Shown here piece after piece: positions 38,798-55,490 of a stretch of DNA of 64,000 nt. Origin of the DNA: Fidelibacterota bacterium (GTDB taxonomy: Bacteria; Fidelibacterota; Marinisomatia; SCGC-AAA003-L08; GCA-2689995). Made by a program: the position numbers and the translations under genes. Position 1 is the first letter of the stretch, and each line of letters opens with the position of its first letter. A model generated the notes under the pieces. That model ran no database searches. It saw only the letters and a program-made list of their open reading frames with translations, and was not told the origin of the DNA. The stretch covers positions 35,767 to 99,766 of the forward strand of contig JACNKR010000037.1 in the NCBI GenBank assembly GCA_014381925.1, in the 5' to 3' direction.

Positions 38798-41700
38798 ATG
38801 AATTATCCAAATATCCGTCGAGAATCCGTATTAAATCCGCTTTTAGAATTAGTAAAGGATTGTATAAAATCAAACCATACTGGAATAATTGAAATATATG
38901 GAAATGCGGGTTGTGGAAAAACAACAATTCTTAATCAAATTGAAGAATATTTTTCTTATTATGCTATTTTCCCACACATTAATCAAACAATTGGATATGA
39001 GCAATTTTCATTAATTTCATATTTATCTTCTTTAAATAATAATCATTTCAAACCTAAATTAGATGAAAATGAAATAATTTCACATCTTAGTGAACTTTTA
39101 CTTCAATCACGAAATTTTCAAAAAGATATTCAAATATTTATAATAGATGATTCTCATCTATTGTCTAAGGAGGTTATAAACCAATTAAAACTTATATTTA
39201 ATAAGTATAGTGGATTTTCAAATTACTTTTTAATTTTATCTGGTAGAGAGAAAAAACTAAATAATAATAGTATTGAGATTGGTCGTTTTTCAAAAAATGA
39301 GATTGATCATATTTTCCAATTATTTCTTAATAAAAAATGGGTAGAATTAAATACAGATATTTATGATTGGATTATAAAATTAACGGATGCTTGGCCTTTT
39401 TATTTAATTCTATTTTTAGAATGGGGGCTGAAGATTGGCACTCTCTCTAAAAAAACACAAAAACCTTTAGACCAAATTATATCAAGGCAATTGCCCGAGA
39501 ATTTACTTCAATCTGTAAATCAAAGATATAATCTTTCACTATTATCTGTCAAACAAAAAGAGATTATTGAATATATTTCATTCTCAACAAAACAGTTATC
39601 ATTTTTAGAATTAGCATCGTTAATTTCAATTCCAATAGGTGAGATTAATAATAATTGTAATTATCTTGAAAATGAGGGATGGATTAATGAAAATAATCAA
39701 TTATACCACCCCTTAATTGGAGAAATGGTAATTGGAAATTGTGAAAATATTCAAAATATAAATGAAAATTTTATTTTAAAGTTAGAATTACCTTTACACG
39801 AACAAGCATCGCACATTTTGAAATTAAATAAATTATCAAAAAACCATAAGTTGATTCTTGAAGAATATGGCGATGAAATTGAGTCAGAAGGACTTTTTTA
39901 TTCTGCGATAAAAACATTTGAAAAGATAGATCCAAAAAAACAATTAAATCATATTCAGTTTAAAATTGCAATAAATTTATATCGAATTGGAAAAAATAAT
40001 CAAAGTAAGGAAATACTTGAAAATTTAATTACGGATAATCGTTTTAATAATAGTTATAAGGTTTATTATTATTTAGGTCGAATATATTTTCTTCAAAATA
40101 AGCTTGATGATGTATTTAAAATTATAAATTTAGGATTAAAAAATGTCTTAGATGATTTTTCAGTTTATAAATTAAAATCTTTGATGATTGAATTATTGGT
40201 CATTAATGGTTCAAAAGATGAAGTCATCAAATTATTAAATGAAATACAGCCAACAGAAAAATCGACAATTGACGAAAAGCTAGAATATTATAATCTTATT
40301 GCACATATTCATCAGCATGCAATTGTAGAAATTGATGTGGTTTATATAATGGAAACAGGTATTGAGCTTGCTGAGAAACACAATAAAAATAGTAATTTAG
40401 TTAATTTAAATTTAGGTTTAATGAGGCATTATGCATTGACTGATGATGTGGAAAATGCATTGTTTTATGCAGAAAAAGCATATTCTCTAGCGAAAGCATG
40501 TTTTGAATTAAGATTAGTTGCGAGTATTTTATTAGAACGAGGTCAAATTTATGCTCGAAATGGCAAAGCTGGTATTGGAATAAAAGATTTAGAAACTGCA
40601 ATTGAGATGAATAAAAGTTTTGAAAATATAATAAATACATTAAATCCAATATCTCAAATGGCTGGGGTGTATGAAATGTTAAATCATATACCAAAATCTG
40701 ACAAAACTCATTCAAATTTATCTGTTCTATTAAAGGAAAATGATAACTTTGATTCTTTACTTGGTTTAGGGATTTATTATCAACTCAGACAAAATTATAG
40801 TAAATCAATACATATTTATAATGCACTTATAATTAAAATTGACAAAATTAATAATGAAAATATTAAAGCTTTTTTATTGGGAGTATTTTATCCAACTATT
40901 TTTAGTAAAGATGAAAAACAAGCAGATAAGAACTTTAATCAAGCTGTAAATGATTTAATTCGTTTAAAAACAATTTATTATCTTCATGCACCCTTTCATG
41001 CAAAGGGTTGGGTATTAATAAATAGTTCGCAAGAAAATAATCTCTCATCACATTTGCAAAAATGGGTTGAAATTATAAAAGATGAAAATGAAATCCCATT
41101 AGATTTTTATCAACCATTAATGATTATTAATGAAATAACCCAAGGTGAAAAACAAAATGCACTTCATCGCTTACGACGATTTGAATCTCGATTTGAAGGT
41201 GCAAATATTCTTCAATATAAAAATCTTTATGATTGGTTAATTAAAGAAAATACATATCCAAAATTTACGAACAGATATAAAGTTATTTCAGAGCTTATAA
41301 ATTCAATAACACATGTTGATAAAAAATTAAATAAAATATCAGTTAATAAATCAGATGAATTTTTAGACTTTTTAATAGAATGGCAGAGATGTATTCATGT
41401 AGAGAAAGATTTTGAAAAATCAATTTTAAATCGATTTGTTCAGAATGAAAGTCAAAAAGATTGTTTATTGGATACTTTAATTGTGTGGGATATATCATTG
41501 TCCAAATTTGAAGATGATATAGCATCTCATTCAAAATTAATTTCAATCCAATTATTAGGAAAGCCAAATGTGAGTATAGAAAAAGTATTAATAAATAAAG
41601 ACCTCAGAGGCGTAAATAAACCAATTGAATTGTTTATTTATCTCATATTAAAAGGATGGAGATTTAATAATCAATTATCAAAAGAACGAATTGCTTCTCA

Positions 41701-42151
41701 ATTATGGGACGATGATATAGAAGATATTGATAGTAAAGTCAAAAAATTAAATATTACACTTTCACGATTAAGGAAATCTTTAAATAATAAAGATAATAGC
41801 TATATATTAAATAAACTTAACTCTATTGGGTTTAATTGGGACTATTCTAATTATCGGTTAGATATAGATGACTTTTATCAATCATATAATCTTGGTAAAG
41901 ATGCATTAAATAATAAAGAATTGGATAAAGGAATTTCATATTTAAAACATGCAATAAATGTATATGGTGGATATTTGTGCAATAAATTAAAATCTGAATG
42001 GATTGATGAAATAAGAGCAACATTTCATAATTATTACTTAGATTGTTTAATAATATTATCTGAAAATTTATCAGATAAAGAAAAACAAAAATTATTATAT
42101 TCTGAACAATTAAAATTCCCTGACGAAGAAATAGAAGAGTATTTTGATTAA
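38798..42151 (+). CDS. STAND-type ATPase with TPR-like middle region and C-terminal SARP-like wHTH + BTAD transcriptional activator domain
   Basis: Walker A GNAGCGKTT (about nt 38900) and Walker B IFIIDDSHLL. Long helical-repeat region. From nt 41540: ISIQLLGKP...ERIASQLWDDD...LNITLSRLRKSL (OmpR/SARP wHTH), then YRLDIDDF...AINVYGGYL......W..EIR (BTAD). Confidence 0.75.
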   Translation: MNYPNIRRESVLNPLLELVKDCIKSNHTGIIEIYGNAGCGKTTILNQIEEYFSYYAIFPHINQTIGYEQFSLISYLSSLNNNHFKPKLDENEIISHLSELLLQSRNFQKDIQIFIIDDSHLLSKEVINQLKLIFNKYSGFSNYFLILSGREKKLNNNSIEIGRFSKNEIDHIFQLFLNKKWVELNTDIYDWIIKLTDAWPFYLILFLEWGLKIGTLSKKTQKPLDQIISRQLPENLLQSVNQRYNLSLLSVKQKEIIEYISFSTKQLSFLELASLISIPIGEINNNCNYLENEGWINENNQLYHPLIGEMVIGNCENIQNINENFILKLELPLHEQASHILKLNKLSKNHKLILEEYGDEIESEGLFYSAIKTFEKIDPKKQLNHIQFKIAINLYRIGKNNQSKEILENLITDNRFNNSYKVYYYLGRIYFLQNKLDDVFKIINLGLKNVLDDFSVYKLKSLMIELLVINGSKDEVIKLLNEIQPTEKSTIDEKLEYYNLIAHIHQHAIVEIDVVYIMETGIELAEKHNKNSNLVNLNLGLMRHYALTDDVENALFYAEKAYSLAKACFELRLVASILLERGQIYARNGKAGIGIKDLETAIEMNKSFENIINTLNPISQMAGVYEMLNHIPKSDKTHSNLSVLLKENDNFDSLLGLGIYYQLRQNYSKSIHIYNALIIKIDKINNENIKAFLLGVFYPTIFSKDEKQADKNFNQAVNDLIRLKTIYYLHAPFHAKGWVLINSSQENNLSSHLQKWVEIIKDENEIPLDFYQPLMIINEITQGEKQNALHRLRRFESRFEGANILQYKNLYDWLIKENTYPKFTNRYKVISELINSITHVDKKLNKISVNKSDEFLDFLIEWQRCIHVEKDFEKSILNRFVQNESQKDCLLDTLIVWDISLSKFEDDIASHSKLISIQLLGKPNVSIEKVLINKDLRGVNKPIELFIYLILKGWRFNNQLSKERIASQLWDDDIEDIDSKVKKLNITLSRLRKSLNNKDNSYILNKLNSIGFNWDYSNYRLDIDDFYQSYNLGKDALNNKELDKGISYLKHAINVYGGYLCNKLKSEWIDEIRATFHNYYLDCLIILSENLSDKEKQKLLYSEQLKFPDEEIEEYFD

Positions 42152-42170
42152 AATAATTAGATCAATTTGT

Positions 42171-42250
42171 GCGGACTTTTAGGTCACTCCTATGGAGTTC
42201 ATGTTTATTTTTAGGTTAATGTGTTATTAATAGTGCACCTCTCCGAGGTT
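42171..42250. repeat. 80-nt element A, copy 1 of 3
   Basis: GCGGACTTTTAGGTCACTCCTATGGAGTTCATGTTTATTTTTAGGTTAATGTGTTATTAATAG..CACCTCTCCGAGGTT. It differs from copies 2 and 3 at 3 positions each, all in the last 20 nt. Confidence 0.95.
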
Positions 42251-42312
42251 AAAATCAAATTTAAAATTATATTACGTTGTTTGTAATAATAGAATATTGA
42301 GTATATGATTTA

Positions 42313-42361
42313 ATTCACAATTCATATTTTATAATTCAAAATTCATATTTCATAATTGTAA
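42313..42361. repeat. 7-bp-period heptad array (7 units, ATTCAnA type)
   Basis: ATTCACA ATTCATA TTTTATA ATTCAAA ATTCATA TTTCATA ATTGTAA. Confidence 0.85.
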
Positions 42362-42495
42362 GTTTTTATACTCCTTTGATATTAAGAAAAATATAGATGA
42401 GAAAAAAATTAATGCTGTTATTAAATATTAGTAGAAGTGACGCATGCGTCGCCACTACAAAATAAATTAATCGCTCATAAACCTCCTGTTTTTTT

Positions 42496-42523
42496 ATTCA
42501 AAATTCATATTTCATAATTATAA
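42496..42523. repeat. heptad array (4 units); identical copy at 42800-42827
   Basis: ATTCAAA ATTCATA TTTCATA ATTATAA. Confidence 0.85.
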
Positions 42524-42591
42524 GTTTTTATACTCCAGAGGAGTAATCTATTTGTAATAATAAATCAAGATAAATAATTAGCTCTATGGGA

Positions 42592-42671
42592 GCGGACTTT
42601 TAGGTCACTCCTATGGAGTTCATGTTTATTTTTAGGTTAATGTGTTATTAATAGGTCACCTCTCCGAAGTT
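42592..42671. repeat. 80-nt element A, copy 2 of 3
   Basis: Direct comparison with 42171-42250 and 42896-42975. Confidence 0.95.
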
Positions 42672-42895
42672 TGATGAAAACCACAAATAAATGAAGTAAT
42701 CGCTTGTTCAATAATATTAAAAATTATATAAAATGTAATAACGACGCATGCGTCGCCACTACAAAATAAATTAATCGCTCATAAACCTCCTGTTTTTTTA
42801 TTCAAAATTCATATTTCATAATTATAAGTTTTTATACTCCAGAGGAGTAATCTATTTGTAATAATAAATCAAGATAAATAATTAGCTCTATGGGA

Positions 42896-42975
42896 GCGGA
42901 CTTTTAGGTCACTCCTATGGAGTTCATGTTTATTTTTAGGTTAATGTGTTATTAATAGGTTACCTCTCCGAGGTT
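42896..42975. repeat. 80-nt element A, copy 3 of 3
   Basis: Direct comparison. Together with the following 76 nt (to 43051) it repeats 42171-42326 with about 5 mismatches. Confidence 0.95.
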
Positions 42976-43037
42976 AAAATCAAATTTAAAATTATATTAC
43001 TTTGTCTGTAATAATAGAATATTGAGTATATGATTTA

Positions 43038-43072
43038 ATTCACAATTCATAATTCAAAATTCACAATTCATA
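43038..43072. repeat. heptad array (5 perfect-period units)
   Basis: ATTCACA ATTCATA ATTCAAA ATTCACA ATTCATA. Confidence 0.9.
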
Positions 43073-43308
43073 ATTACTATTTTGTTCTACGGTTTTCAGC
43101 ATCCAAAATTACAATTATTCCCTTATTTTACCCCGATTAACAAAAAAAATAAAAAAATTTTACTTTTTTGTAATTAATTTTAAAATCGATGTTTTAATAT
43201 AGTGTACCATCATCTTTTATTAAAAATAATTTTATAAAAACACTAAATATCACCCATTTTCACCCCGAATTCATTTATGTTGAAAGGTTTTTTTTGTATA
43301 TTATAACT

Positions 43309-43530
43309 ATGAATTTTACGACTCTTGATAATGACATTTTTTTCGTTTGCAGAAATTGTGAATATTTTCGGTTTATCACAACCGAAAACAAGGCACATAT
43401 TTATTGCTCGCGATGTGGAAATGATATGGAGAACAAGTGTCGTAAATGTGGTTTAGAATATAATAATCCATTCTCGAAATTTTGTGAGAGGTGTGGAGAG
43501 AATATAACAAAAGTTAGAATTACAGATTAA
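43309..43530 (+). CDS. double zinc-ribbon protein, unknown function
   Basis: Four CxxC pairs (CRNC, CSRC, CRKC, CERC) in 73 aa. ATG at 43309 is preferred over the TTG at 43294. Confidence 0.6.
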   Translation: MNFTTLDNDIFFVCRNCEYFRFITTENKAHIYCSRCGNDMENKCRKCGLEYNNPFSKFCERCGENITKVRITD

Positions 43531-43618
43531 TTTTTAACTCTACCTCATGGGGAAAAATTATTTTCGGTTTAAAATTAATAACCTGTAATGATGACACAAA
43601 CAATAAAGGGAAAAAATA

Positions 43619-44203
43619 ATGAAATCAATAAATAATATAATAACATTAATATTTTTATTACTATTTATCAATTGTGCTGGGAAAATTGGGTTAAGCAGAT
43701 CAAATATTTCTGATATGCCAGAGTGGTATAAAAATTATAGAGAATATAAATATTATGACCCAGATAGTCGAATATATGGAAAAGGATTTGCTGAAGAATT
43801 ATTTCTAAATCAGGCTATGGATAATGCATCAAGTAAAGCAATATCAAATTTAGCTCAGCAAATAGGCACTTACTGTAAGAGAACAGATATTTTAGAAAGT
43901 GTTTCTAATAATTCTAAAAGAGTCAATAGTGGTGAAAGAAAAAAGAGGAATAATAAAAATACTTCTTCTCGTGAAGCTTCAAATTATTCTAATCAATTAA
44001 TTGAAAATATTGCTCAGGAAGTTTTGAGAAGACCTATTGAAGAAATAACCGATACTTGGGAAAAAGAGAAAGATGGTGTAACAATTTATAGATCTTGGAC
44101 TATTTGGTCGGTTTCTGTTAATTCAGTAGAACAATCATTATTAGAAAGAATGAATGAAGACCCTGAGTTTTATGATGCAATTGAAAAATTATATTTAAAA
44201 TAA
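43619..44203 (+). CDS. lipoprotein, LPP20/FlgP-like (weak)
   Basis: Lipobox LLFINC; the PEW motif shortly after the Cys; then A...A...A..LA..I pattern typical of LPP20-type lipoproteins. Confidence 0.45.
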   Translation: MKSINNIITLIFLLLFINCAGKIGLSRSNISDMPEWYKNYREYKYYDPDSRIYGKGFAEELFLNQAMDNASSKAISNLAQQIGTYCKRTDILESVSNNSKRVNSGERKKRNNKNTSSREASNYSNQLIENIAQEVLRRPIEEITDTWEKEKDGVTIYRSWTIWSVSVNSVEQSLLERMNEDPEFYDAIEKLYLK

Positions 44204-45673
44204 ATGAAAAATATTAATTTTATATACTTTTTTTCAATAGGAATTTTGTTTGGACAATCTTGGATTACTATTGGTAATTATGAGACAATTTATGCGCATT
44301 ATTATTTAGGTATAAGTGAACCGAATCTTCCTCAAGCTGAGTCAATAAATAATGCTTTTTCTAATGCTTTAGAAAAAGCAGGTATTGAACAAAGCATGGT
44401 AAATATTGAATCTATTCGGAAAATTAATACAACCACTGGAATAAATAGAAGAATAGATAAGAGAGGAATAACTAATTCGGGACAATTAAAATCAACTACG
44501 GAGAGCGGTATTAATCGTCAATTTTCTTCATCAATTGATAACATAACATTAATGGAAGAATTATATGATGGTGATATAGGGTACACATTAATTAGAATAC
44601 CCAAAGAAGGATATAATGATTTTGACTTTTTTTCGATGAATAGGGAATTTAATATAAGTAAGAAAATAAACGGAATTAAAAAATCCGCAATGGTACCAGG
44701 GTTAGGGTCATATTATCAGGAAAAACCAGCTAGAGGTACTCTTTTTTTATTAGGTTCAATTGCTTCTGCAGGGATGATTTTATCATCTTATTCTAAATAT
44801 AATAAAGCCATAGATCAAATGAATACATCAATTCTTAGTGATGATTTATTACGGTTTTATGATGAATCCATTATTCAATCAAATCGATTTAGTATTAGCT
44901 TATTATCTTTTAGTACAATATATATAATGAATTTATTAGATCCATTTCTTTTCCCTGGTGAGTTTAAGGACTATTATTATCGAAAAAAGCAAAAACCTAG
45001 AAATGATTTAAAAATTATAAAAAAATCTAATTGGAATTATAATGATTTGGGAGGTTTTGGTTTTGTTGCTCCTAATCGTATTCCAATAGAAGCAAGTTCA
45101 AATTCAAAGTTTGAAAATAGTGATGAAGCATTAAAGCTATCAGGGGGTAATATTTATTTTTCTGTATTTTTTGAAAATATAAAAGGTATGATTTATTATG
45201 CAGAACACATAACAGGTAATGATCATCTTTTATTTAAAGAAGGTGGTATAGGATATTATAAGAATTATATTAATTCCATTTTTGGATTATACCCATTGAT
45301 AGGTGCAAGCTTAGGTTATTGTTCAGTTTCACAAGATTGGGACGATAAGGATGAATTTTTAACTGAAAACTATGATAAGGGGTTTGGTTTTAAAAGTAAA
45401 AATATAAGTAGCTATTATTTACAAGCAAAAATTGAGGCTGGGTTGCAAAAATGGTTTAATCAATATAATATCTTTTTAAATTTTGGTTATCATTTACCCG
45501 CTAGAATGAATAATTTTAATATAAAAGTATATGATGGAACAGAAATTGAAGGAATGAAAAATGCGGTAACAAAAAGAATAACACCATCTGAACTTCCATA
45601 TTCAAATATTAAAATTGGGGGGAAATATATATCATTAGGCATTTCGTATAATTTTAAAAGTGAAGCAAAATAA
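44204..45673 (+). CDS. envelope protein: LPP20-like N-domain, two TM helices after an S..VPGLGSYY motif, beta-rich C-terminal domain
   Basis: Signal peptide; SAMVPGLGSYYQEKPARGTLFLLGS motif plus hydrophobic helices; C-terminal alternating pattern ending GISYNF. The start abuts the previous stop. Confidence 0.45.
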   Translation: MKNINFIYFFSIGILFGQSWITIGNYETIYAHYYLGISEPNLPQAESINNAFSNALEKAGIEQSMVNIESIRKINTTTGINRRIDKRGITNSGQLKSTTESGINRQFSSSIDNITLMEELYDGDIGYTLIRIPKEGYNDFDFFSMNREFNISKKINGIKKSAMVPGLGSYYQEKPARGTLFLLGSIASAGMILSSYSKYNKAIDQMNTSILSDDLLRFYDESIIQSNRFSISLLSFSTIYIMNLLDPFLFPGEFKDYYYRKKQKPRNDLKIIKKSNWNYNDLGGFGFVAPNRIPIEASSNSKFENSDEALKLSGGNIYFSVFFENIKGMIYYAEHITGNDHLLFKEGGIGYYKNYINSIFGLYPLIGASLGYCSVSQDWDDKDEFLTENYDKGFGFKSKNISSYYLQAKIEAGLQKWFNQYNIFLNFGYHLPARMNNFNIKVYDGTEIEGMKNAVTKRITPSELPYSNIKIGGKYISLGISYNFKSEAK

Positions 45674-45693
45674 TTAGAGAAAAGGAATAGTAA

Positions 45694-48060
45694 ATGAATA
45701 ACAGTAAAAGGTTTAAAACAGTATTATTATTAATTGTATCAATTTTTATAATTTCATGTTTAAGTGAGCCAACTCCACCAGAAACGGTTGGTATTATTTC
45801 AGGTACAATTTATAATAGTGAAACAATGGAAGTTATACAGGGTGTTACCATTATAACTGAACCAGCTGTTTCTTCAATTATAACTGGTGCAGATGGAAAG
45901 TTTGAAATAATAGATGTCCCTGAAGATATTTATGAACTTTCAGCAAGTCATCCAATATATGAAACTAAATCAACTACGGTTCAGGTGTTAGCCGGAAGAA
46001 GTGTTTTTGTTGATCTGCAATTAAATCCGTTAAGTACAGAAATGAGTATTTCTGAAGAGGCGCTAAATTTTGGTACATCAACAGATAATTTGACTTTCTA
46101 TATTCAAAATATAGGCATTGGTACAATGAATTGGTCATTATCCAAAAACCAATCTTGGTTGACTGTTTCCCCTACAAGCGGGACTACAATTACTGAGACG
46201 GATATTGTCAATGTAAGTGTAAATCGCTCTGATTATAGTCCAGGAAATTATACAGATGTAATTTCTCTTACTTCTAATTCTAATGCAATGAGTGTAAGTG
46301 TAATAATGACTGTTGCTGATACAACAGGTCCACAACTTTCAGTATCTCCTTCAAGTTTTGATTTTGGTACAGAAATTACACAAAAGAGCTTTGAAATATC
46401 AAATACGGGTGTTGGTTCTTTAACATGGAATGCATCTACTTCTGAAAACTGGATTGATATTGAAACAAATTCAGGTACAATATTGAGTGGTAATAGTAAC
46501 ATAAATATTTCTATAATTAGAACAAATCTTGCCGTGGGTACATATAGTGGGAATATATTATTTACTTCAAATGGTGGCAATCAGACCGTAAATGTAAATG
46601 TTACCATACCAAATGAACCTATTATTTCAGTTTCTTCATCCAATTTAGATTTTGGAAGTACAACAAATACAATGACTTTTGATGTAAGTAATTCAGGGGT
46701 AAATGATTTAAATTGGACAATTTCAGATAATCAGGATTGGATTACCACAACTCCCAATTCGGGTACTAATTTAGGTACGGTAAATGTAACCATTTCTAGA
46801 GATGGATTTTCTCCCGGTGATTATAGCGGAACCGTGACTGTAAGCTCTAATAATGGTTCTCAATCTGTAAGTATTAATATGAATGTTCCTGCAGAACAAC
46901 CACCTACTGCTGTTGTACTTACTGACCCAAGCAATATTACAACAAACTCTATGACCCTTGCTTGGTCTCGAAATTATGACTCTGATTTTGCTGCATACCG
47001 TTTATATTATAGTACATCGCCTGCTGTAACTGAAAATTCATCATTAGCGACAACCATTACTGATAATAATACAAATTCTTATACTGTTACTGGCTTAAGC
47101 AACAGTACCACATATTATTTTAAGGTGTATGTTATGGATACGGCGCAAATGACTACAGGTTCAAATGTGGTTTCTGCTTCAACATCTGCAATATTAGGTA
47201 ATTGGGTATTAACAGAAAATATCCCAAATGTTACTTTTAGTGCTGTTTGGTTTAACTCTGAAAATGATGGATACGCTGTTGGAGAAAGTAGTGTCATTTA
47301 TGATGCTAAAATTTATCATTGGGGTGGCTCAAATTGGGTAGAAGAAGTTGTTCATGATGATGCCCTAGATTTATATGATGTTCGCTTTATTGATGCAAAT
47401 AATGGTTATGCTGTGGGTAACAGTGGCACGTTTCTTTATTATAATGGTGTATCCTGGTCGGAATTCAATTCACCTACATATTCTTCTATCGAAGCCGTAT
47501 TTCCATTGTCTAACGATAATATCTGGACTTATGCAAGTGATGATATTTACCATTGGGATGGCAGTGAATGGACTTCAACTCATTTGGATATATCTTATAT
47601 TCGAGATATTTATTTTATTAACGAAAATGACGGGTGGGTTGTTGATCAGTATGGTAAAATGTTTCACTACAATGGCATTGGCTGGGCATTCCATAGTAAC
47701 GTAGAAAATTATTACGTCAGCAATGGTGAATTATACTTTTTGAATTCTTCCGAAGGATGGTATATAAATAATTACAATAACACTGGTAATGCTTACAATT
47801 TCGTTTATCATTATGATGGCAGTAGTTGGACCCGGTATGAGGATAATGATTACCCAATTTATAGGGTAACTAGAATTCAAGAAATATCTGCATCCAATAT
47901 ATGGGCAGTAGGATATGGTGGTTTAATTTTTAATTTTGATGGCGAACGGTGGAATTCTGTTACAAGTCCTACATCAAACGATTTAATTGGTATTTTTATG
48001 CTTAATGCGTCTGATGGCTGGGCGGTAGGTGAAAATGGTGTAATATTGAGGTATCATTGA
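45694..48060 (+). CDS. large surface lipoprotein: CarboxypepD_reg-like domain, 3 BACON/Ig-like repeats, FN3, C-terminal beta-propeller
   Basis: Lipobox IISC. GTIYNSET...GKFEIIDVPEDIYEL. Three repeats of about 95 aa (FG...F.I.N.G...L.W.......W...P.SGT). FN3 with YYFKVYV. Six or more blades of the GWAVG..G.I..Y.G..W type. Confidence 0.7.
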   Translation: MNNSKRFKTVLLLIVSIFIISCLSEPTPPETVGIISGTIYNSETMEVIQGVTIITEPAVSSIITGADGKFEIIDVPEDIYELSASHPIYETKSTTVQVLAGRSVFVDLQLNPLSTEMSISEEALNFGTSTDNLTFYIQNIGIGTMNWSLSKNQSWLTVSPTSGTTITETDIVNVSVNRSDYSPGNYTDVISLTSNSNAMSVSVIMTVADTTGPQLSVSPSSFDFGTEITQKSFEISNTGVGSLTWNASTSENWIDIETNSGTILSGNSNINISIIRTNLAVGTYSGNILFTSNGGNQTVNVNVTIPNEPIISVSSSNLDFGSTTNTMTFDVSNSGVNDLNWTISDNQDWITTTPNSGTNLGTVNVTISRDGFSPGDYSGTVTVSSNNGSQSVSINMNVPAEQPPTAVVLTDPSNITTNSMTLAWSRNYDSDFAAYRLYYSTSPAVTENSSLATTITDNNTNSYTVTGLSNSTTYYFKVYVMDTAQMTTGSNVVSASTSAILGNWVLTENIPNVTFSAVWFNSENDGYAVGESSVIYDAKIYHWGGSNWVEEVVHDDALDLYDVRFIDANNGYAVGNSGTFLYYNGVSWSEFNSPTYSSIEAVFPLSNDNIWTYASDDIYHWDGSEWTSTHLDISYIRDIYFINENDGWVVDQYGKMFHYNGIGWAFHSNVENYYVSNGELYFLNSSEGWYINNYNNTGNAYNFVYHYDGSSWTRYEDNDYPIYRVTRIQEISASNIWAVGYGGLIFNFDGERWNSVTSPTSNDLIGIFMLNASDGWAVGENGVILRYH

Positions 48061-48085
48061 TAAAAATAATGGAGAACATTTTACT

Positions 48086-48379
48086 ATGGTAAATAAAAAG
48101 AAGAGTCAGGATGAAAAATTTAAAGAAGACTTTTTAAATACTGGTATCAACGCTATCAAACAATACAAAATGGGTGATTTTGTTAAATTAAACCCACAGG
48201 CAAATTTTAAAGAAAAAGACGGATACCACGGTGACCCTACTTTTTCTAATGGAGAAATAATAAAAGTTAAACCTGATGATAAATACGATATTAATCCTGT
48301 CGATCCAAAAGGAGAAATACTTAAAGATTATGATGGGAAGTTTTTAATTCTTATTGAAAGTATGGGAGATAATTCCTAG
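48086..48379 (+). CDS. hypothetical small soluble protein
   Basis: ORF with an upstream GGAGAA. No recognisable motif. Confidence 0.4.
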   Translation: MVNKKKSQDEKFKEDFLNTGINAIKQYKMGDFVKLNPQANFKEKDGYHGDPTFSNGEIIKVKPDDKYDINPVDPKGEILKDYDGKFLILIESMGDNS

Positions 48380-48399
48380 TAGAGTAAGGCTTGGTAAAA

Positions 48400-48558
48400 A
48401 TGGTAAGTAATGGAATAACATCTAGTATCTTATTTGGATTAGAAATAATTGGTTCAGCGATAACAAAACTTATTGAGGAGGTCATTATGGATATTTCAAA
48501 TATTTTCATTTTATGTGTTTGGTATGGTGCGATGTATCTGCGAGAACTTGGTGGTTAG
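48400..48558 (+). CDS. possible 52-aa hydrophobic small protein (or a 23-aa peptide starting at 48487)
   Basis: MVSNGITSSILFGLEIIGSAITKLIEEVIMDISNIFILCVWYGAMYLRELGG. The internal ATG at 48487 has a strong GAGGAGG 5 nt upstream. It falls below the ORF-track length cutoff. Confidence 0.3.
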   Translation: MVSNGITSSILFGLEIIGSAITKLIEEVIMDISNIFILCVWYGAMYLRELGG

Positions 48559-48648
48559 CATCTAATCCAAATAAGAGATAAACGGTATTATAAAATAATT
48601 TGCTTGCCAAGAGATACAAAGCGGGATTCAATTCCCCGCTCTCGCACC
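48539..48648 (+). other. tRNA-like structured element (acceptor-like helix + T-arm-like hairpin + ACC), not a canonical tRNA
   Basis: TGCGAGA (48539-45) pairs perfectly with TCTCGCA (48640-46). CGGGA-TTCAATT-CCCCG forms a T-arm-like hairpin. An inner CTTGG/CCAAG helix is present. No D or anticodon arm can be drawn, and the length is about 110 nt. Confidence 0.3.
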
Positions 48649-48705
48649 TAAATTTAAAATGGCACGCTATTATTCATAATTAAAAAAAGAAAGAGGTAGA
48701 GTTAA

Positions 48706-49179
48706 ATGAAAAAATTTAGAGTTTTTAAAAATCCTATTGGTGAAGTTAAAGTTGTGAAAGTTGGTTGGTCCTGGCCTGCAGCTTTATTTGTCCCATTTTG
48801 GTTATTTTTTCATGGGTTTTATTTGTATGGAATAATAATGTTTTTTATAGATTTTATTTCTGTTGGTATATCTCATGTTTTTATAGGAATCTTTTTTCTA
48901 GGAAAAGATGGAAATAAAATTTTAGCAGACAATTTAATATCTAAAGGTTTTGAATGTGTAATGGAAGTTACTGCGAACAATATTGAAATGGCATTATCAA
49001 TTTATTATAAAAATAAAGAGTCAAATAATAATGTAAATGAAAATCATAAATTTGAATTGAAAAAAGAAATTAATATTAATGAAGAAGAAAATAGCACAGA
49101 AAAAGTTTGCACTATGTGTGCAGAAACTATAAAACAGGCTGCAAAAATATGTAGATATTGTTCTCATCAATTTGAGTAA
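48706..49179 (+). CDS. membrane protein (DUF2628-like N-terminus) with a C-terminal zinc ribbon
   Basis: GWSWPAALFVPFWLFFHGFY and two TM helices. C-terminal CTMCAETIKQAAKICRYCSHQF. Confidence 0.55.
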   Translation: MKKFRVFKNPIGEVKVVKVGWSWPAALFVPFWLFFHGFYLYGIIMFFIDFISVGISHVFIGIFFLGKDGNKILADNLISKGFECVMEVTANNIEMALSIYYKNKESNNNVNENHKFELKKEININEEENSTEKVCTMCAETIKQAAKICRYCSHQFE

Positions 49180-49185
49180 TATTAA

Positions 49186-49479
49186 TTGAGACACATTATC
49201 CCAATCATATTACAATTAATTACATCCTATTATTCTGATCCTATAGAAGAAGAAAAAGAGATATCTTATAATGATCAGGTGATGGTGTTAGAATATCCTA
49301 ATTTCAATTCAAATATTGAATATTGTACAATTAAAAATGGCAAATTTTATACTGACTTTAATCCATTGGTTTATTTAAATAAAAAATCAAAATGGGAAAA
49401 TAGAGAAGATTCAATTAATGTTTTTAACCCCAATATCGATATATTCAGTTTAATCAAAAGGAAAGAATTTGGTAAATAA
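49186..49479 (+). CDS. hypothetical protein
   Basis: ORF with a TTG start, bracketed by the 10-nt direct repeat GAGACACATT. Confidence 0.3.
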   Translation: MRHIIPIILQLITSYYSDPIEEEKEISYNDQVMVLEYPNFNSNIEYCTIKNGKFYTDFNPLVYLNKKSKWENREDSINVFNPNIDIFSLIKRKEFGK

Positions 49480-52430: not shown

Positions 52431-54284
52431 TTATTTTAATAAGATAATTTTTTGAATTTCATGATTTGATTGATTTTTTATTTTATAATCTAATCGAATA
52501 AAATAAGTACCTGAAGGTAATCCCTTTGCATCCCATTCAATTGTATGAATCCCTGCTTCAATTTGACTATCTATTAAGGATTTAGTTAAACGACCATTGA
52601 TGTCATATATTTGTAGAGACATTGCGTGCAATGTTTCAGGCACAGCAAAACGAATTGTCGTTACAGGATTAAATGGATTTGGGTATGCAGGGTATAATTC
52701 AAATTGAGATTGATAGGTAGTTTCATTTTGTTTTTCAAAATTAATTTCAACTATCTGTAAATTATCAAATGGTTTTAATCTAATATTTAAATCAATAATA
52801 TTTCCATTTGAATGGTCAAAATATTTTAGGGTTGGCCTATCATTTGTTTCACAATATCCAATAGTCTGTGATGAAATATCCCTACCCATTACCGGCAAGA
52901 CAGAAATATCATTATTATAAATTACTGATCCAACTAAAATATTATTATTGTAAGTGAGTAAATAATCACCATTTTCTATTTCATTATTAATAGTATTAAT
53001 ATTTTTTAGTAGATAAAACGCTTGTTCCGTAGATTGTGAAAATTGAAACTCATTTGGAATATTCACTAAACTATTCGATTTATTTAAACTTTGTAACTCT
53101 GGTGGAGTATCACAATTATCAACACCCCATTTAAATTCAAGTGATGAATTTTGAATATTTACCCAATATCCTTTTCCTTCCTCTAAGAAATTTAAATTTC
53201 CTGCCCATCCATCAATTGTATTAAATAAACCTACACCTTGTCCCAAAATAAAATTGAAATTTTCAGTTGCAAATGCTTCACCCCCAAGTGCATCCATTGT
53301 GAGTGCATTTCCTGAACCCCATTTAAAAGCGAGGAGATTATTTCCATAAGAAGTTTCATAAATATTACAATTATCGATTGTTCCAAGTTCAAAATAAATA
53401 TCCCAATCTAAACTTTGGTTTACATTTAACCAATACCCTGAAAAAGGATCGACTATATTTAAATTTCCTGACCAACCATCAATTGTGTTAAATAGACCAA
53501 CACCCTGCCCTAATATAAAATTTACATTCGTCCCCATTGAAATTAAACTATCCATAATATTTATGGTATTAGAATTTTCATAATAACCAGGAAGTCCAAT
53601 TAAATTATTTCCAAATGATAAGTTATGTGTAAAATGAAATCCATATTCGCATGTATTATCATTTACAATTGCACTTGATGTATAATTCATTGCTTCAGGA
53701 TCTATGCATGCACAATTGGAGTAGGATTCATAGCATAGTGAACAGTCGCCATAGTTTGAAAATGGATTAAAATATAAATCATTGTAAAATGGACATCCAC
53801 CATCACCCGTAAAATAGTCTCCATCTCCAATCACATTTATACTATCAATTAAAACTTGGCTTAATGGAAAAATTGCTGTTTCATCAACTCCATAATACAT
53901 TATTCCTTCAGAAGTATCAAAAATATTAATTGATACAGAATCACCCGAATTTGGATAATGTGAAATATCCGCTGTAACTTGATCATTAAAGTTTACAGTA
54001 ATAAATAATTGATCGTTAGAAGTGCTACCATAACTCCAACCAATACAGGAATCGCCATACATTACGGCGATAATATCACAATCGAGCGATGGGCAAATAC
54101 CAAATGCTGTATTATTATTAATTCCATTTACAATTGGTTCATCCCAAATAGAAATATCATCAATTACAATAAATCCCTGTGATGTTGAAGTAATTACATT
54201 GTAATCTGTTGGTCCATAATCTGGAGCCAATCCCATCCCACTTAAAAAATAAAATACAGCAAAAATTAATGAAATCTTCTTCAA
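52431..54284 (-). CDS. secreted protein with an internal duplication of about 95 aa and a T9SS-type C-terminal sorting domain
   Basis: The C-terminus NPFNPVTTIRF...LQIYDINGRL...GTYFIRL is of the Por_Secre_tail/FlgD-Ig-like type. The NFILGQGVGLFNTIDGW.GNLN module occurs twice. The likely start is TTG 54284, downstream of GGAGGAGGA (the track start is 54299). Confidence 0.75.
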   Translation of the reverse strand: MKKISLIFAVFYFLSGMGLAPDYGPTDYNVITSTSQGFIVIDDISIWDEPIVNGINNNTAFGICPSLDCDIIAVMYGDSCIGWSYGSTSNDQLFITVNFNDQVTADISHYPNSGDSVSINIFDTSEGIMYYGVDETAIFPLSQVLIDSINVIGDGDYFTGDGGCPFYNDLYFNPFSNYGDCSLCYESYSNCACIDPEAMNYTSSAIVNDNTCEYGFHFTHNLSFGNNLIGLPGYYENSNTINIMDSLISMGTNVNFILGQGVGLFNTIDGWSGNLNIVDPFSGYWLNVNQSLDWDIYFELGTIDNCNIYETSYGNNLLAFKWGSGNALTMDALGGEAFATENFNFILGQGVGLFNTIDGWAGNLNFLEEGKGYWVNIQNSSLEFKWGVDNCDTPPELQSLNKSNSLVNIPNEFQFSQSTEQAFYLLKNINTINNEIENGDYLLTYNNNILVGSVIYNNDISVLPVMGRDISSQTIGYCETNDRPTLKYFDHSNGNIIDLNIRLKPFDNLQIVEINFEKQNETTYQSQFELYPAYPNPFNPVTTIRFAVPETLHAMSLQIYDINGRLTKSLIDSQIEAGIHTIEWDAKGLPSGTYFIRLDYKIKNQSNHEIQKIILLK

Positions 54285-54465
54285 TTTTCCTCCTCCCAAG
54301 AAGAATATTGTTTAATTATTGCCCCATAATATATAAATAGTTAAATGCTAGAAGTAAGATGAATTATTAAGATAAAATAATTTATGATTAACATCAACAT
54401 AATTACAGATATTAGTTAATTTTATTGCTTGTTATTATAAAATATTAAATATTATAAAAAATTAT

Positions 54466-54599: not shown

Positions 54600-55490
54600 A
54601 TGTTTGGTGACATAACAAGAGTAGGTGCGAATTTCAATGCAATGGAATCGCTGTTTAATTTAAAAAGAGTAAATGGTGAGATTGGTCAAGTACAATCTCG
54701 ATTATCATCAGGTAAGCGGATTAATTCAGCTGAGGATGATACATCAGGATATGCTTTATCAAAACATCTTCAAAGTAGAGTGAATGGTTTAACTCAGGCA
54801 TTAGATAATGTTTCAACTGCAAAAAATGTTTTAAATATTGCAGAGGGTGGATATCAATCTCAAATGAGTATTCTTCAACAAATAAAAGAAAGTTTAACAC
54901 AGGCGGCCGATGGTGCTTTAAGTACTGAGCAAAGAGGTGCAATTGGTGACCGTATTCATTCATTATTGACAGAAATTGATGATATTAAAAGTCAAACTAA
55001 ATATAATGGATATACTTTGTTTACGGATAGTGGTTCAGATAGAACAATGACTTTCCAAGTTGGTGAAGAAAATACAGACACATTTGCGGTTACATTTAAT
55101 TCATCTGGTAGAAATGATATAGGTGAAACGGGTGGTATTGATATTGATAGTATAGTTGGTTCAAATACTGGAAGTGCAGCTTCTGGTGATTGGGCAGCAT
55201 TAGATCAAACAGAAGCTACTGCTGGAATTTTAACTTTAGATAGTGCTATTAAATCAATGGCTAAAACTATCCAGCAAATGGGTGATGATCAAGCACGATT
55301 AACATCTAAAGAAGAATCCTTATCATTAGGTATTTCAAATACAGAAGCGACAAGAAGTCGAATTGAAGATGCTGATTTTGCTAAAGAGCAAATGACGATG
55401 ATGAAGTTGCAAATTTTACAACAGACATCAATATCAGCATTTACGCAATCGAATTCTGCACCGCAAGTTGTATTATCATTATTTAGATAA
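54600..55490 (+). CDS. fliC: flagellin (short, D0/D1-only type)
   Basis: N-terminal SRLSSGKRINSAEDDTSGYALS...L.QA..N...A.N.L..AEG and C-terminal IEDADFAKE...K.QILQQ...A...QSN..PQ.VLSL.R. Confidence 0.9.
   Translation: MFGDITRVGANFNAMESLFNLKRVNGEIGQVQSRLSSGKRINSAEDDTSGYALSKHLQSRVNGLTQALDNVSTAKNVLNIAEGGYQSQMSILQQIKESLTQAADGALSTEQRGAIGDRIHSLLTEIDDIKSQTKYNGYTLFTDSGSDRTMTFQVGEENTDTFAVTFNSSGRNDIGETGGIDIDSIVGSNTGSAASGDWAALDQTEATAGILTLDSAIKSMAKTIQQMGDDQARLTSKEESLSLGISNTEATRSRIEDADFAKEQMTMMKLQILQQTSISAFTQSNSAPQVVLSLFR

Follow-up and report, generated by a model that had tools for sequence, protein, structure and literature searches.

The locus and its repeats

The window, by which we mean the whole 64,000-nt stretch of DNA that was analysed, contains a gene for a large regulator followed, after a long AT-rich intergenic region, by an operon encoding strain-variable secreted and T9SS surface proteins. 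Three near-identical copies of an 80-nt element, starting at 42171, 42592 and 42896, lie in the region between them. The features with which the account begins are as follows.

38798–42151, + strand: regulator of 1117 aa, a STAND ATPase (AAA_22/NB-ARC-like) with TPR repeats and a weak C-terminal wHTH/SARP-like region
42171–42250, + strand: element copy 1, 5'-truncated, starting 20 nt past the regulator stop codon
42592–42671, + strand: element copy 2, the apex and 3' arm of long-hairpin unit 2 (see below)
42896–42975, + strand: element copy 3, the apex and 3' arm of long-hairpin unit 3
42192–42230 (also 42613–42651 and 42917–42955), + strand: mini-ORF MEFMFIFRLMCY, judged non-coding
42618–42656 (also 42922–42962), + strand: 19-nt internal tandem duplication (Tandem Repeats Finder, 2.1 copies, 80% matches)
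43309–43530, + strand: double zinc-ribbon protein, the first gene downstream of the array

The C-terminal region of the regulator matches Trans_reg_C (E 0.0066) and NF041231 (AfsR/SARP; E 0.028), both at sub-threshold level. Sequence and profile searches of the PDB with this region gave nothing meaningful, and an AlphaFold2 model of the C-terminal 224 aa has a pLDDT of 47.9, too low for use. A word-seeded search of 5.8 billion protein clusters yielded three homologues of the regulator. On the other side of the array, the zinc-ribbon gene is followed by a strain-variable cargo island (43507–49186).

The preliminary description of this DNA reported three 80-nt copies, each with the MEFMFIFRLMCY frame and TAGGTYA-like repeats, and this is borne out. 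The window has just three occurrences of a 31-nt core of the element, all on the + strand (42173, 42594 and 42898), the chance expectation being zero. The copies belong to larger duplicated blocks, one of 233 nt (42439–42671 and 42743–42975, 99% identity) and another of 207 nt (42151–42357 and 42876–43082, 91% identity). Since these blocks are much larger than 80 nt, recent duplication accounts for the similarity of the window copies, and the three copies therefore constitute no independent evidence of constraint.

The 12-codon frame

The frame ATG GAG TTC ATG TTT ATT TTT AGG TTA ATG TGT TAT TAA TAG starts at 42192, 42613 and 42917. As the preliminary description stated, every difference between the window copies (TGC/GTC/GTT and GAGG/GAAG) falls 3' of the double stop, and the ATG is indeed placed in the loop and 3' arm of the hairpin ACTCC-TAT-GGAGT. 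Comparison was made with six full copies from three related metagenome contigs: L012:4602, L012:5142, L014:70, L014:329, L014:587 and the reverse-complemented copy in L016.

A translated, hydrophobic peptide of 12 aa, serving as a leader or as a regulatory small ORF, would fit the intact frame and double stop not only of the three window copies but also of L012:5142 and L016. The frame is open too in L014:70, where it has acquired two non-synonymous changes and one synonymous change. However, a 1-nt deletion (T4 in place of T5) in three of the six relatives' copies converts the frame to MEFMFILG*, of only eight codons, and in one of these, L014:329, the ATG has in addition become ATC. The start codon is paired both in the short hairpin, S3 below, and in a 57-bp stem in whose 3' arm the mini-ORF is located, and the sameness of the window copies is accounted for by the recent duplication. 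The observation that no good Shine-Dalgarno sequence precedes the frame is correct, yet only 16 of 50 genes here carry one, the other 34 being likewise without. The preliminary description itself proposed alignment with relatives' copies as the means of judging the coding reading, and the frameshifts and start loss seen there refute it. We consider the peptide highly improbable: the 12-codon mini-ORF is almost certainly not a gene, and its sequence is a by-product of the stem and of the 19-nt internal duplication.

Other small ORFs of the array, ending in DACVATTK (42397–42465 and 42704–42769), were considered as RiPP-like precursors and rejected, as the first of them is also frameshifted in both L012 and L016.

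The TAGGTYA repeats

The claim of three TAGGTYA direct repeats per element holds for the first two, TTAGGTCA and TTAGGTTA, which are present in all three window copies. Taking window and relatives together, TTAGGTCA is invariant in nine of nine full copies and TTAGGTTA is found in eight of the nine. The third does not hold up: it reads TAGTGCA in copy 1, as had been noted, and TAGGTCA and TAGGTTA in the other two window copies, and is TAGTGCA or TAGTGTA in most copies overall. Outside the element copies TTAGGTYA is not enriched in the window (7 found, 5.5 expected), and shuffling the element yields a 7-mer in triplicate, with no more than one mismatch, in 23% of cases. Longer repeats within the element do exceed chance, with nine 8-mer pairs against 1.1 expected. 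The second and third TAGGTYA occurrences ('TAG|GTY') result from the junctions of the 19-nt tandem-duplication units; like the mini-ORF, the TAGGTYA repeats arose incidentally from the stem sequence and this duplication.

These repeats had been proposed as operator DNA, to which the wHTH at the C-terminus of the neighbouring regulator would bind. The arrangement is reminiscent of SARP/AfsR operators in that direct repeats of 7–8 nt lie beside a large regulator of ATPase type whose DNA-binding region is weakly SARP-like, and the constancy of the first two repeats would be in keeping with such a role. SARP operators consist of heptamers with 4-bp spacers, repeating every 11 bp (sometimes 10 bp) close to the -35 region (PMC5930380). 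The TAGGTYA repeats are, in contrast, spaced by 31–32 and 19 nt centre-to-centre, with a shift introduced by the T-run indel; the third is not conserved; and the two origins given above account for all of them. The DNA preceding the regulator gene contains no motifs of this kind, and in the regulator the domains run ATPase-TPR-wHTH, opposite to their order in AfsR. A better candidate is the heptamer tract (TTCAnAA)n, kept immediately upstream of the operon in every arrangement (window, L014 and L016) and represented by ten matches in the window, all of them in the repeat array, where two would be expected.

43037–43075, + strand: heptamer tract (TTCAnAA)x5; a longer copy lies at 42311–42357 and 3-unit copies at 42497–42517 and 42801–42821

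The anatomy of the repeats, together with the sub-threshold wHTH/SARP matches, thus leaves the operator reading unsupported, and on sequence grounds we regard it as very doubtful.

A long hairpin on one strand

The preliminary description also rated a structural RNA role as at least as likely as translation. The direction of this suggestion stands but not the structure named: the 80-nt element is the apex and 3' arm of an imperfect palindrome of ~145 nt, which takes in ~65 nt more on the 5' side, and is no self-contained unit. Folded alone, on either strand, 80–96 nt of the element do no better than shuffles (z -0.4 to -1.7), which applies equally to its 5-bp hairpin. Two full units are present.

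42531–42671, + strand: long-hairpin unit 2, with 5' arm (S2+R) at 42531–42591 and apex and 3' arm at 42592–42671
42835–42975, + strand: long-hairpin unit 3, with 5' arm at 42835–42895 and apex and 3' arm at 42896–42975

On the + strand each forms a single, G·U-rich hairpin of ~57 bp, as stable as which none of 200 shuffles folds. Unit 2, with 45 Watson-Crick and 12 G·U pairs, has an RNA minimum free energy of -46.5 kcal/mol (z -6.0), compared with -32.9 kcal/mol (z -4.0) on the - strand. For unit 3 the corresponding values are -52.8 kcal/mol (z -7.4; 46 Watson-Crick pairs, 11 G·U and 1 A·C) and -31.1 kcal/mol (z -3.9). A generic mark of structured RNA, that one strand folds significantly better than shuffles, is therefore seen for the + strand. 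Copy 1, which keeps only ~22 nt of the 5' arm (42152–42172), does not fold into a long hairpin (160 nt, -27.2 kcal/mol).

The hairpin was flagged independently by reverse-strand self-matches in nhmmer, by weak Rfam matches on both strands to MIR398, a microRNA-precursor family, and by the RNAalifold consensus as well. Over six copies 97.5% of paired cells can pair, compared with 32–51% when the partners are slid. In six of six full copies, the inverted L016 copy included, the strand in element sense folds more stably, and positions opposed in the stem are G·U rather than A·C by 12:4 in unit 2 and 11:1 in unit 3. With DNA parameters the long hairpin is not the minimum-energy fold, making it weak as single-stranded DNA. 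In Rfam 15 the only match in the whole window at gathering score is a tRNA, with none in the repeat region; relaxing the cut-off to E 10 produces only chance-level matches there, the MIR398 ones and some to snoRNAs (E at least 0.12).

The asymmetry bears on whether the hairpin is more than neutral debris, an accident without function left behind where an extended, AT-rich intergenic stretch has recently undergone segmental and inverted duplication. Such an origin would be in keeping with copies that are 91–99% identical and confined to a very narrow lineage (regulator identity at least 97%), with copies whose changes disrupt S3 and the base of the hairpin, and with element conservation no higher than that of the surrounding non-coding DNA (92–96%). 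Nor is there covariation across the six copies: 39 of 47 pairs are invariant, 116 of 500 shuffles reach the observed score, the sole pair changed on both sides is located at a non-homologous junction, and RNAalifold gives a positive covariation term for either strand. Three single-sided polymorphisms in the short hairpins produce C·A in the + strand fold and G·U in that of the - strand. A change in hairpin H2, GCTC..GAGC to ACTC..GAGT, was rejected as a compensatory pair, since the long-hairpin model equally reads it as G·U to A-U plus an unpaired change. What speaks against neutrality is the excess of G·U over A·C, the constant direction of the strand difference and the retention of the array, variously arranged, in four of four haplotypes that share one regulator allele group. 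Strand-biased C-to-T mutation may account for part of the G·U excess; the GC skew of the window is ~+0.2, and under a mutational bias of 1.5–2:1 the 11:1 ratio has, by binomial estimate, p ~0.02–0.06. We consider neutral debris unlikely, although it is the rival to which we give most weight.

Short palindromes and rearrangement between strains

Three short palindromes and one half-site recur at positions where the array differs between relatives.

42607–42619 (also 42186–42198 and 42911–42923): palindrome S3, ACTCC-TAT-GGAGT, the truncation point in L012
42531–42545 (also 42835–42849): palindrome S2, TACTCC-AGA-GGAGTA, the hairpin base
42962–42974 (also 42237–42249 and, degenerate, 42658–42670): palindrome S4, ACCTC-TCC-GAGGT, the element 3' boundary
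42370–42385: half-site junction S1, ACTCC|TTTGATATTAAG, with one right flank and varying left partners

The sequence ACTCCNNNGGAGT has five exact sites in the window, all in the repeat region, where 0.38 would be expected. At L012:4921 the junction reads ...TTAGATTACTCC|TTTGATATTAAG, a copy cut at S3. The right flank TTTGATATTAAG... is joined on its left to a different partner in each of the window, L012 and L016, and at S4 the downstream partner switches between TTAAAATC... and TTTGATGAAAACC.... S2 is the left breakpoint of a segment inverted in L016, where positions 1–176 are the reverse complement of window 42840–43015 (93.8%) and meet, at ACTCC, sequence corresponding to window 42369–42468 in forward orientation (96%). 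L014 has three copies with a different spacer set. Among the relatives there are thus changes of copy number, one truncation (L012) and one inversion with respect to the operon (L016), and each mapped breakpoint at or inside the hairpin unit lies on a palindrome of 13–15 bp. Logan contigs L018 and L005 start or end inside the repeat, and L001–L004 are mosaics of copy-1 and copy-3 variants. The multi-copy state is real, and the short palindromes at the base of the unit, near its apex and at its end are sites of recombination among closely related strains.

This pattern invites comparison with invertons and shufflons, in which case the palindromes would be sites for a recombinase encoded elsewhere and flipping or reshuffling of cassettes would alter how many promoters face the surface-protein operon, or which way they point, producing phase variation of the operon. 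As in those systems, a segment bounded by short inverted repeats, and found in both orientations, lies upstream of strain-variable secreted-protein genes; in L016 both unit and spacer are inverted, and a spacer contains a sigma-70-like site, TTGTAA-17-TATGAT (42281–42309). To our knowledge, however, the very short inverted repeats with a 3-nt centre are unlike known tyrosine or serine recombinase sites. The genes downstream encode strain-variable secreted or T9SS proteins, a class that invertons typically target (PMC11892184). Unlike those systems, the locus has no nearby recombinase, none of the ~50 window proteins scanned having an integrase or resolvase domain, and its repeats are of 6–15 bp. 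The two orientations come from different samples and lineages (L016 as against the window, L012 and L014), in which the zinc-ribbon protein is only 71% identical, and the predicted reciprocal junction, TATACTCC-N3-GGAGTATA, is absent from all related loci compared. Palindromes are also hot spots for rearrangement without any recombinase. We think a dedicated switch rather improbable.

Distribution

The element is absent downstream of regulator orthologues at 89% (L011) and 74% (L006–L010) identity, and any function must therefore be young and dispensable. An IS3 transposase follows the regulator in L006–L010; contig breaks at the 89% and 74% orthologue loci were considered as an effect of the repeat, a possibility rejected because this transposase explains them. 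There are no copies elsewhere in the 64-kb window or in ~150 kb of related loci, and a search with the element pattern gave no matches in species-representative genomes and none in viral contigs. Among metagenome contigs, in an index that missed the L012 contig, it found one true locus, L014; a second match, L013, is a chance one in a high-GC acyl-CoA synthetase-like gene. Searches of the whole intergenic region with blastn gave no phage matches; the plasmid matches were all of low complexity and confined to the heptamer tract. Queries with the downstream proteins produced no new arrangements.

These results weigh on the suggestion that the unit is a mobile miniature inverted-repeat element of MITE or REPIN type, inserted repeatedly at the locus in either orientation. 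An AT-rich, non-coding imperfect palindrome of ~145 bp falls within the 100–400 bp usual for MITE, ERIC and Correia elements. It is polymorphic for presence and orientation among close relatives, and the junction P-ACTCC|TTTGAT-Q at window 42370 resembles an empty site. ERIC/IRU, Correia (NEMIS) and RUP/BOX elements, which are small, MITE-like and non-autonomous, are, similarly, AT-rich non-coding palindromes of 100–150 bp lying by gene ends in transcribed-looking intergenic space, folding to one long hairpin and present, absent or flipped among relatives. Those families, however, have tens to hundreds of dispersed copies per genome, often with target-site duplications. Here all copies share one intergenic region and the only true metagenome match is the same locus; no target-site duplication is visible, the flanks of full units sharing no direct repeat; and the window has no gene for a transposase or RAYT (REP-associated tyrosine transposase). 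Mobility of this kind accordingly seems most unlikely. The modular mosaic of palindromic units and linkers downstream of a gene also recalls REP/BIME of enterobacteria and REPIN clusters of Pseudomonas. REP/BIME hairpins can protect mRNA 3' ends and are also recombination hot spots. REPs are, though, of 20–40 nt, GC-rich, genome-wide and RAYT-associated, none of which is seen here.

Transcription signals and interpretation

No promoter or terminator can be confidently assigned within the array. A consensus promoter scan did not rise above background (18 sites, 13.6 expected). Taking as an intrinsic terminator a GC-rich stem of at least ~6 bp with a U-run directly after it, S3 is a weak candidate, flagged by a simple scan and comprising 5 bp (3 G-C) followed by TCATGTTTATTTTT. 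Two terminator-like hairpins lie on the other strand.

42734–42763, - strand: terminator-like hairpin, palindrome GACGCATGCGTC, 13 pairs followed by a T-rich tail
42428–42459, - strand: weaker copy of the same hairpin

The ~145-nt palindrome belongs, as a single module, to a mosaic array of repeats that is lineage-specific and extends from the regulator gene to the surface-protein operon. Our preferred explanation, which we hold tentatively and rate at a little short of an even chance, is that the unit is a cis element acting as a long stem-loop in + strand transcripts, with recombining palindromes at its base, near its apex and at its end and with the mini-ORF as a by-product. Such transcripts would originate either as read-through of the regulator gene or at promoter-like, heptamer-bearing spacers ahead of each full copy. 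The stem-loop may then behave as a cis element of the REP/ERIC/Correia type, by protecting transcript ends, through double-stranded RNA processing or by insulating regulator and operon from one another.

A more elaborate version, which we consider distinctly improbable, would make the unit and its heptamer spacer a self-contained regulatory cassette of a new kind for a promoter-driven long-hairpin RNA, which the STAND/SARP-like activator would co-regulate with the operon. An unlinked recombinase would reshuffle the number and orientation of the cassette at the 13-bp palindromes, rendering control of the swappable T9SS surface-protein island phase-variable. The bacterium that this concerns is an uncultured marine member of the Fibrobacterota-Chlorobiota-Bacteroidota (FCB) group.

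As it stands, the element is a lineage-specific, recombination-prone structured repeat of unproven function, a modest and well-delimited curiosity that brings no major surprise. In practical terms a false small-gene call is removed, and short-read assemblies collapse or break at the repeat locus, affecting MAG annotation there. Should the hairpin have a function, it would represent a structured cis-RNA that is specific to this lineage and carries its own recombination hot spot, placed between an uncommon kind of STAND regulator and a surface-protein island open to exchange, and would offer a compact example of how surface-protein expression may vary in uncultured marine bacteria.

The repeat array and its copies

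The 80-nt element is one half of a lineage-specific long-hairpin repeat of ~145 nt, set in a recombination-prone mosaic. The array occupies a 1.1-kb gap between a regulator gene upstream and a double zinc-ribbon gene downstream, in a genome of ~28% GC:

38798-42151: regulator, 1117 aa, with an AAA_22/NB-ARC-like ATPase, TPR repeats and a weak C-terminal Trans_reg_C region
43309-43530: double zinc-ribbon gene, heading a secreted-protein gene set with BACON, fn3 and CarboxypepD_reg domains

The preliminary description is borne out on its three copies: the whole window has exactly three + strand matches to a 31-nt core (42173, 42594 and 42898), where chance would give none. Also as described are the TTAGGTCA/TTAGGTTA repeats, the 12-codon frame closed by two stops, and the ATG covered by an ACTCC-TAT-GGAGT hairpin. 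That all differences between copies lie outside this mini-ORF carries little weight as evidence, however, because the sameness of the copies stems from recent duplication of blocks far larger than the element. One block (42439-42671) matches 42743-42975 over 233 nt at 99% identity, and another (42151-42357) resembles 42876-43082 over 207 nt at 91%. Logan contigs with an identical regulator either have a single copy, mosaic for variants of copies 1 and 3, or have one of their ends within the repeat. Collapsed repeats leave such traces, so the array probably does contain several copies.

Coding potential of the mini-ORF

Comparison of nine full copies, including those in the related metagenome contigs L012 and L014, shows that the mini-ORF frame is not kept. 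Four Ts replace five at L012:4602, L014:329 and L014:587, giving MEFMFILG*; L014:329 additionally has ATC for ATG, and L014:70 carries two non-synonymous substitutions and a synonymous one. Frameshifts of this kind are what the preliminary description had named as grounds for rejecting a coding role. The start codon is paired in every predicted structure. The missing Shine-Dalgarno sequence is not decisive alone, since only 16 of 50 genes here carry one. The element is almost certainly not a mini-gene, and a translated peptide, for which the intact frames in the window would speak, is scarcely credible.

Two other + strand small ORFs (42397-42465 and 42704-42769) both end in DACVATTK because they read into a common GACGCATGCGTC palindrome. 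They were rejected as genes; the former is frameshifted in L012 and in L016, a third related contig.

A long predicted hairpin on the + strand

Structural RNA had been considered at least as likely as translation. This holds for the ~145-nt hairpin but not for the 80-nt unit alone, which folds no better than shuffles. Together with ~65 nt of 5' extension, the unit makes one long imperfect hairpin, in which the element forms the apex and 3' arm, and TACTCCAGAGGAGTA with the next 46 nt the 5' arm.

Predicted RNA folding of the two full units
42528-42675, + strand: minimum free energy -46.5 kcal/mol, z -6.0
42528-42675, - strand: minimum free energy -32.9 kcal/mol, z -4.0
42832-42979, + strand: minimum free energy -52.8 kcal/mol, z -7.4
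42832-42979, - strand: minimum free energy -31.1 kcal/mol, z -3.9

No + strand shuffle of either unit reached the native fold energy. Of the 5' arm, copy 1 (20 nt past the regulator stop codon) retains only ~22 nt; it forms no long hairpin.

Watson-Crick pairs number 45-46 per stem and G·U pairs 11-12, against only 1-4 A·C oppositions. In all six full copies, including an inverted one in L016, the element-sense strand folds more stably than its complement. In these folding models both asymmetries favour a structure read as RNA from the + strand, although G>C skew is strong in the window and mutation alone could account for part of the G·U excess. Folding with DNA parameters gives a minimum-energy structure other than the long hairpin. 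Covariation in the stem gave no signal because 39 of its 47 pairs never vary, and Rfam yielded no family match to the element.

We tentatively prefer to read the unit as a structured cis-RNA on the + strand, akin to REP/ERIC/Correia elements, and at the same time as a hot spot for DNA rearrangement. Neutral duplication debris would suit the large duplicated blocks, with the two strand asymmetries on the other side, and is possible if rather unlikely. In form the element is like known palindromic intergenic repeats, but it differs from them in that neither dispersed copies, in the sequences scanned, nor a target-site duplication were found; a mobile MITE-like element, which would share that form, is very unlikely.

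On the minus strand, perfect TATAAT sequences (42826-42821 and 42522-42517) stand ~60 nt ahead of a 13-bp hairpin (42763-42734), which includes three G·U pairs and runs into a U-rich tail. Together they suggest a candidate transcript of ~90 nt carrying AGGAGG-N3-AUGAGCGAUUAA:

42826-42725, - strand: TATAAT to hairpin
42522-42428, - strand: TATAAT to hairpin

Distribution among relatives

A word-seeded search of 5.8 billion protein clusters, in which the 8000 candidates with most words in common with the query were scored, gave three regulator homologues, at 97%, 89% and 74% identity. Only very close relatives yielded the element: L012, whose regulator is 97% identical; L014, from the same JGI metagenome and identical to the window at the regulator 3' end; and L016, an ENA contig reached via the zinc-ribbon protein. 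It is not present after the regulator stop codon in the 89%- and 74%-identity relatives, the latter having an IS3-type transposase there in its place. The transposase orfA begins ~115 nt past the stop codon (L006:13470-13624, also in L007 and L010), which is why these contigs end there.

Neither species-representative genomes nor viral contigs gave a match when scanned, and a metagenome contig scan gave, besides the true locus, only one hit, by chance, within a high-GC gene. This last scan missed L012 (Ga0209992_10011870), which has the query pattern twice, so it is weak evidence against other copies.

Rearrangement between haplotypes

Whole modules distinguish the four haplotypes (window, L012, L014 and L016). 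The three copies in L014 are set apart by a single type of spacer (period ~258 nt); the window and L012 have extra modules carrying the GACGCATGCGTC hairpin. In L012 one copy is cut at the ACTCC of its internal palindrome and fused to TTTGATATTAAG. L016:1-176 matches window 42840-43015 in reverse complement (93.8%) and joins, again at ACTCC, a forward copy of 42369-42468 (96%), followed by the conserved operon-proximal region. One and the same right flank thus occurs with three different left partners; the junction TAGATTACTCCTTTGATA is common to L012 and L016. ACCTC-TCC-GAGGT, at the 3' end of the element, is likewise a switch point with two alternative downstream partners, and ACTCCNNNGGAGT has five exact sites in the window, all in this region (0.38 expected).

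A recombinational switch would account for such junctions; the window encodes no recombinase, and the reciprocal junction expected of a simple flip was not found. Either site-specific inversion or palindrome-stimulated rearrangement may therefore underlie these differences between haplotypes; a switch seems to us unlikely.

Outside the element, the spacer hairpin ATTAC-N7-GTAAT becomes ATCAC-N7-GTGAT in L012 and L014, an apparent compensatory change; one L014 copy has the intermediate ATCAC..GTAAT.

42270-42295 and 42995-43020: spacer hairpin, window
L012:5243-5265: spacer hairpin
L014:169-192, 427-450 and 686-708: spacer hairpins

Candidate operators

The TAGGTYA repeats had been proposed as an OmpR/SARP-type operator. 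Repeats 1 and 2 are conserved; in place of the third, five of nine copies have TAGTGCA or TAGTGTA. A 19-nt tandem duplication makes up the middle of the element, and the second and third TAG|GTY arise where its units meet. The rest of the window shows no enrichment of TAGGTYA. SARP operators have 11-bp units (PMC5930380), whereas the spacings here are 31-32 nt, varying with a T-run indel, and 19 nt. The SARP-like assignment of the regulator itself is from sub-threshold matches. These points count against the proposal: the element is probably not the regulator's operator, and operator DNA is a highly improbable reading of it.

Unusually, the domains of the regulator run from an N-terminal STAND ATPase through TPR repeats to a weak C-terminal wHTH/SARP-like region, the reverse of the order in AfsR. 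Its structure prediction had a pLDDT of 47.9, and PDB searches gave no match.

More plausible as an operator, and a candidate for the adjoining regulator, is a tandem heptamer tract, (TTCAnAA)3-6, confined within the window to this intergenic region; it is alternatively a candidate slippage-prone tract. It is conserved just ahead of the zinc-ribbon operon in the window, L014 and L016, irrespective of the sequence farther upstream.

43037-43075, 42311-42357, 42497-42517 and 42801-42821: heptamer tracts

A strain-variable surface-protein locus

In the window, a flagellin gene and several T9SS-type secreted proteins (Por_Secre_tail, BACON, CarboxypepD_reg) are found together (54600-55490, 52431-54299 and 45694-48060). 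In a genome of such low GC, this pairing suggests an uncultured bacterium of the Fibrobacterota-Chlorobiota-Bacteroidota (FCB) group outside the Bacteroidia. Downstream of the zinc-ribbon gene, the window has a 5.7-kb cargo island (43507-49186) encoding proteins of 194, 489 and 788 aa (BACON/fn3) and small ORFs, where L014 has a 1413-aa LamG/T9SS protein (L014:1197-5497); the flanks are 97-98% identical. By these comparisons, the locus as a whole is a swappable surface-protein island that varies between strains.
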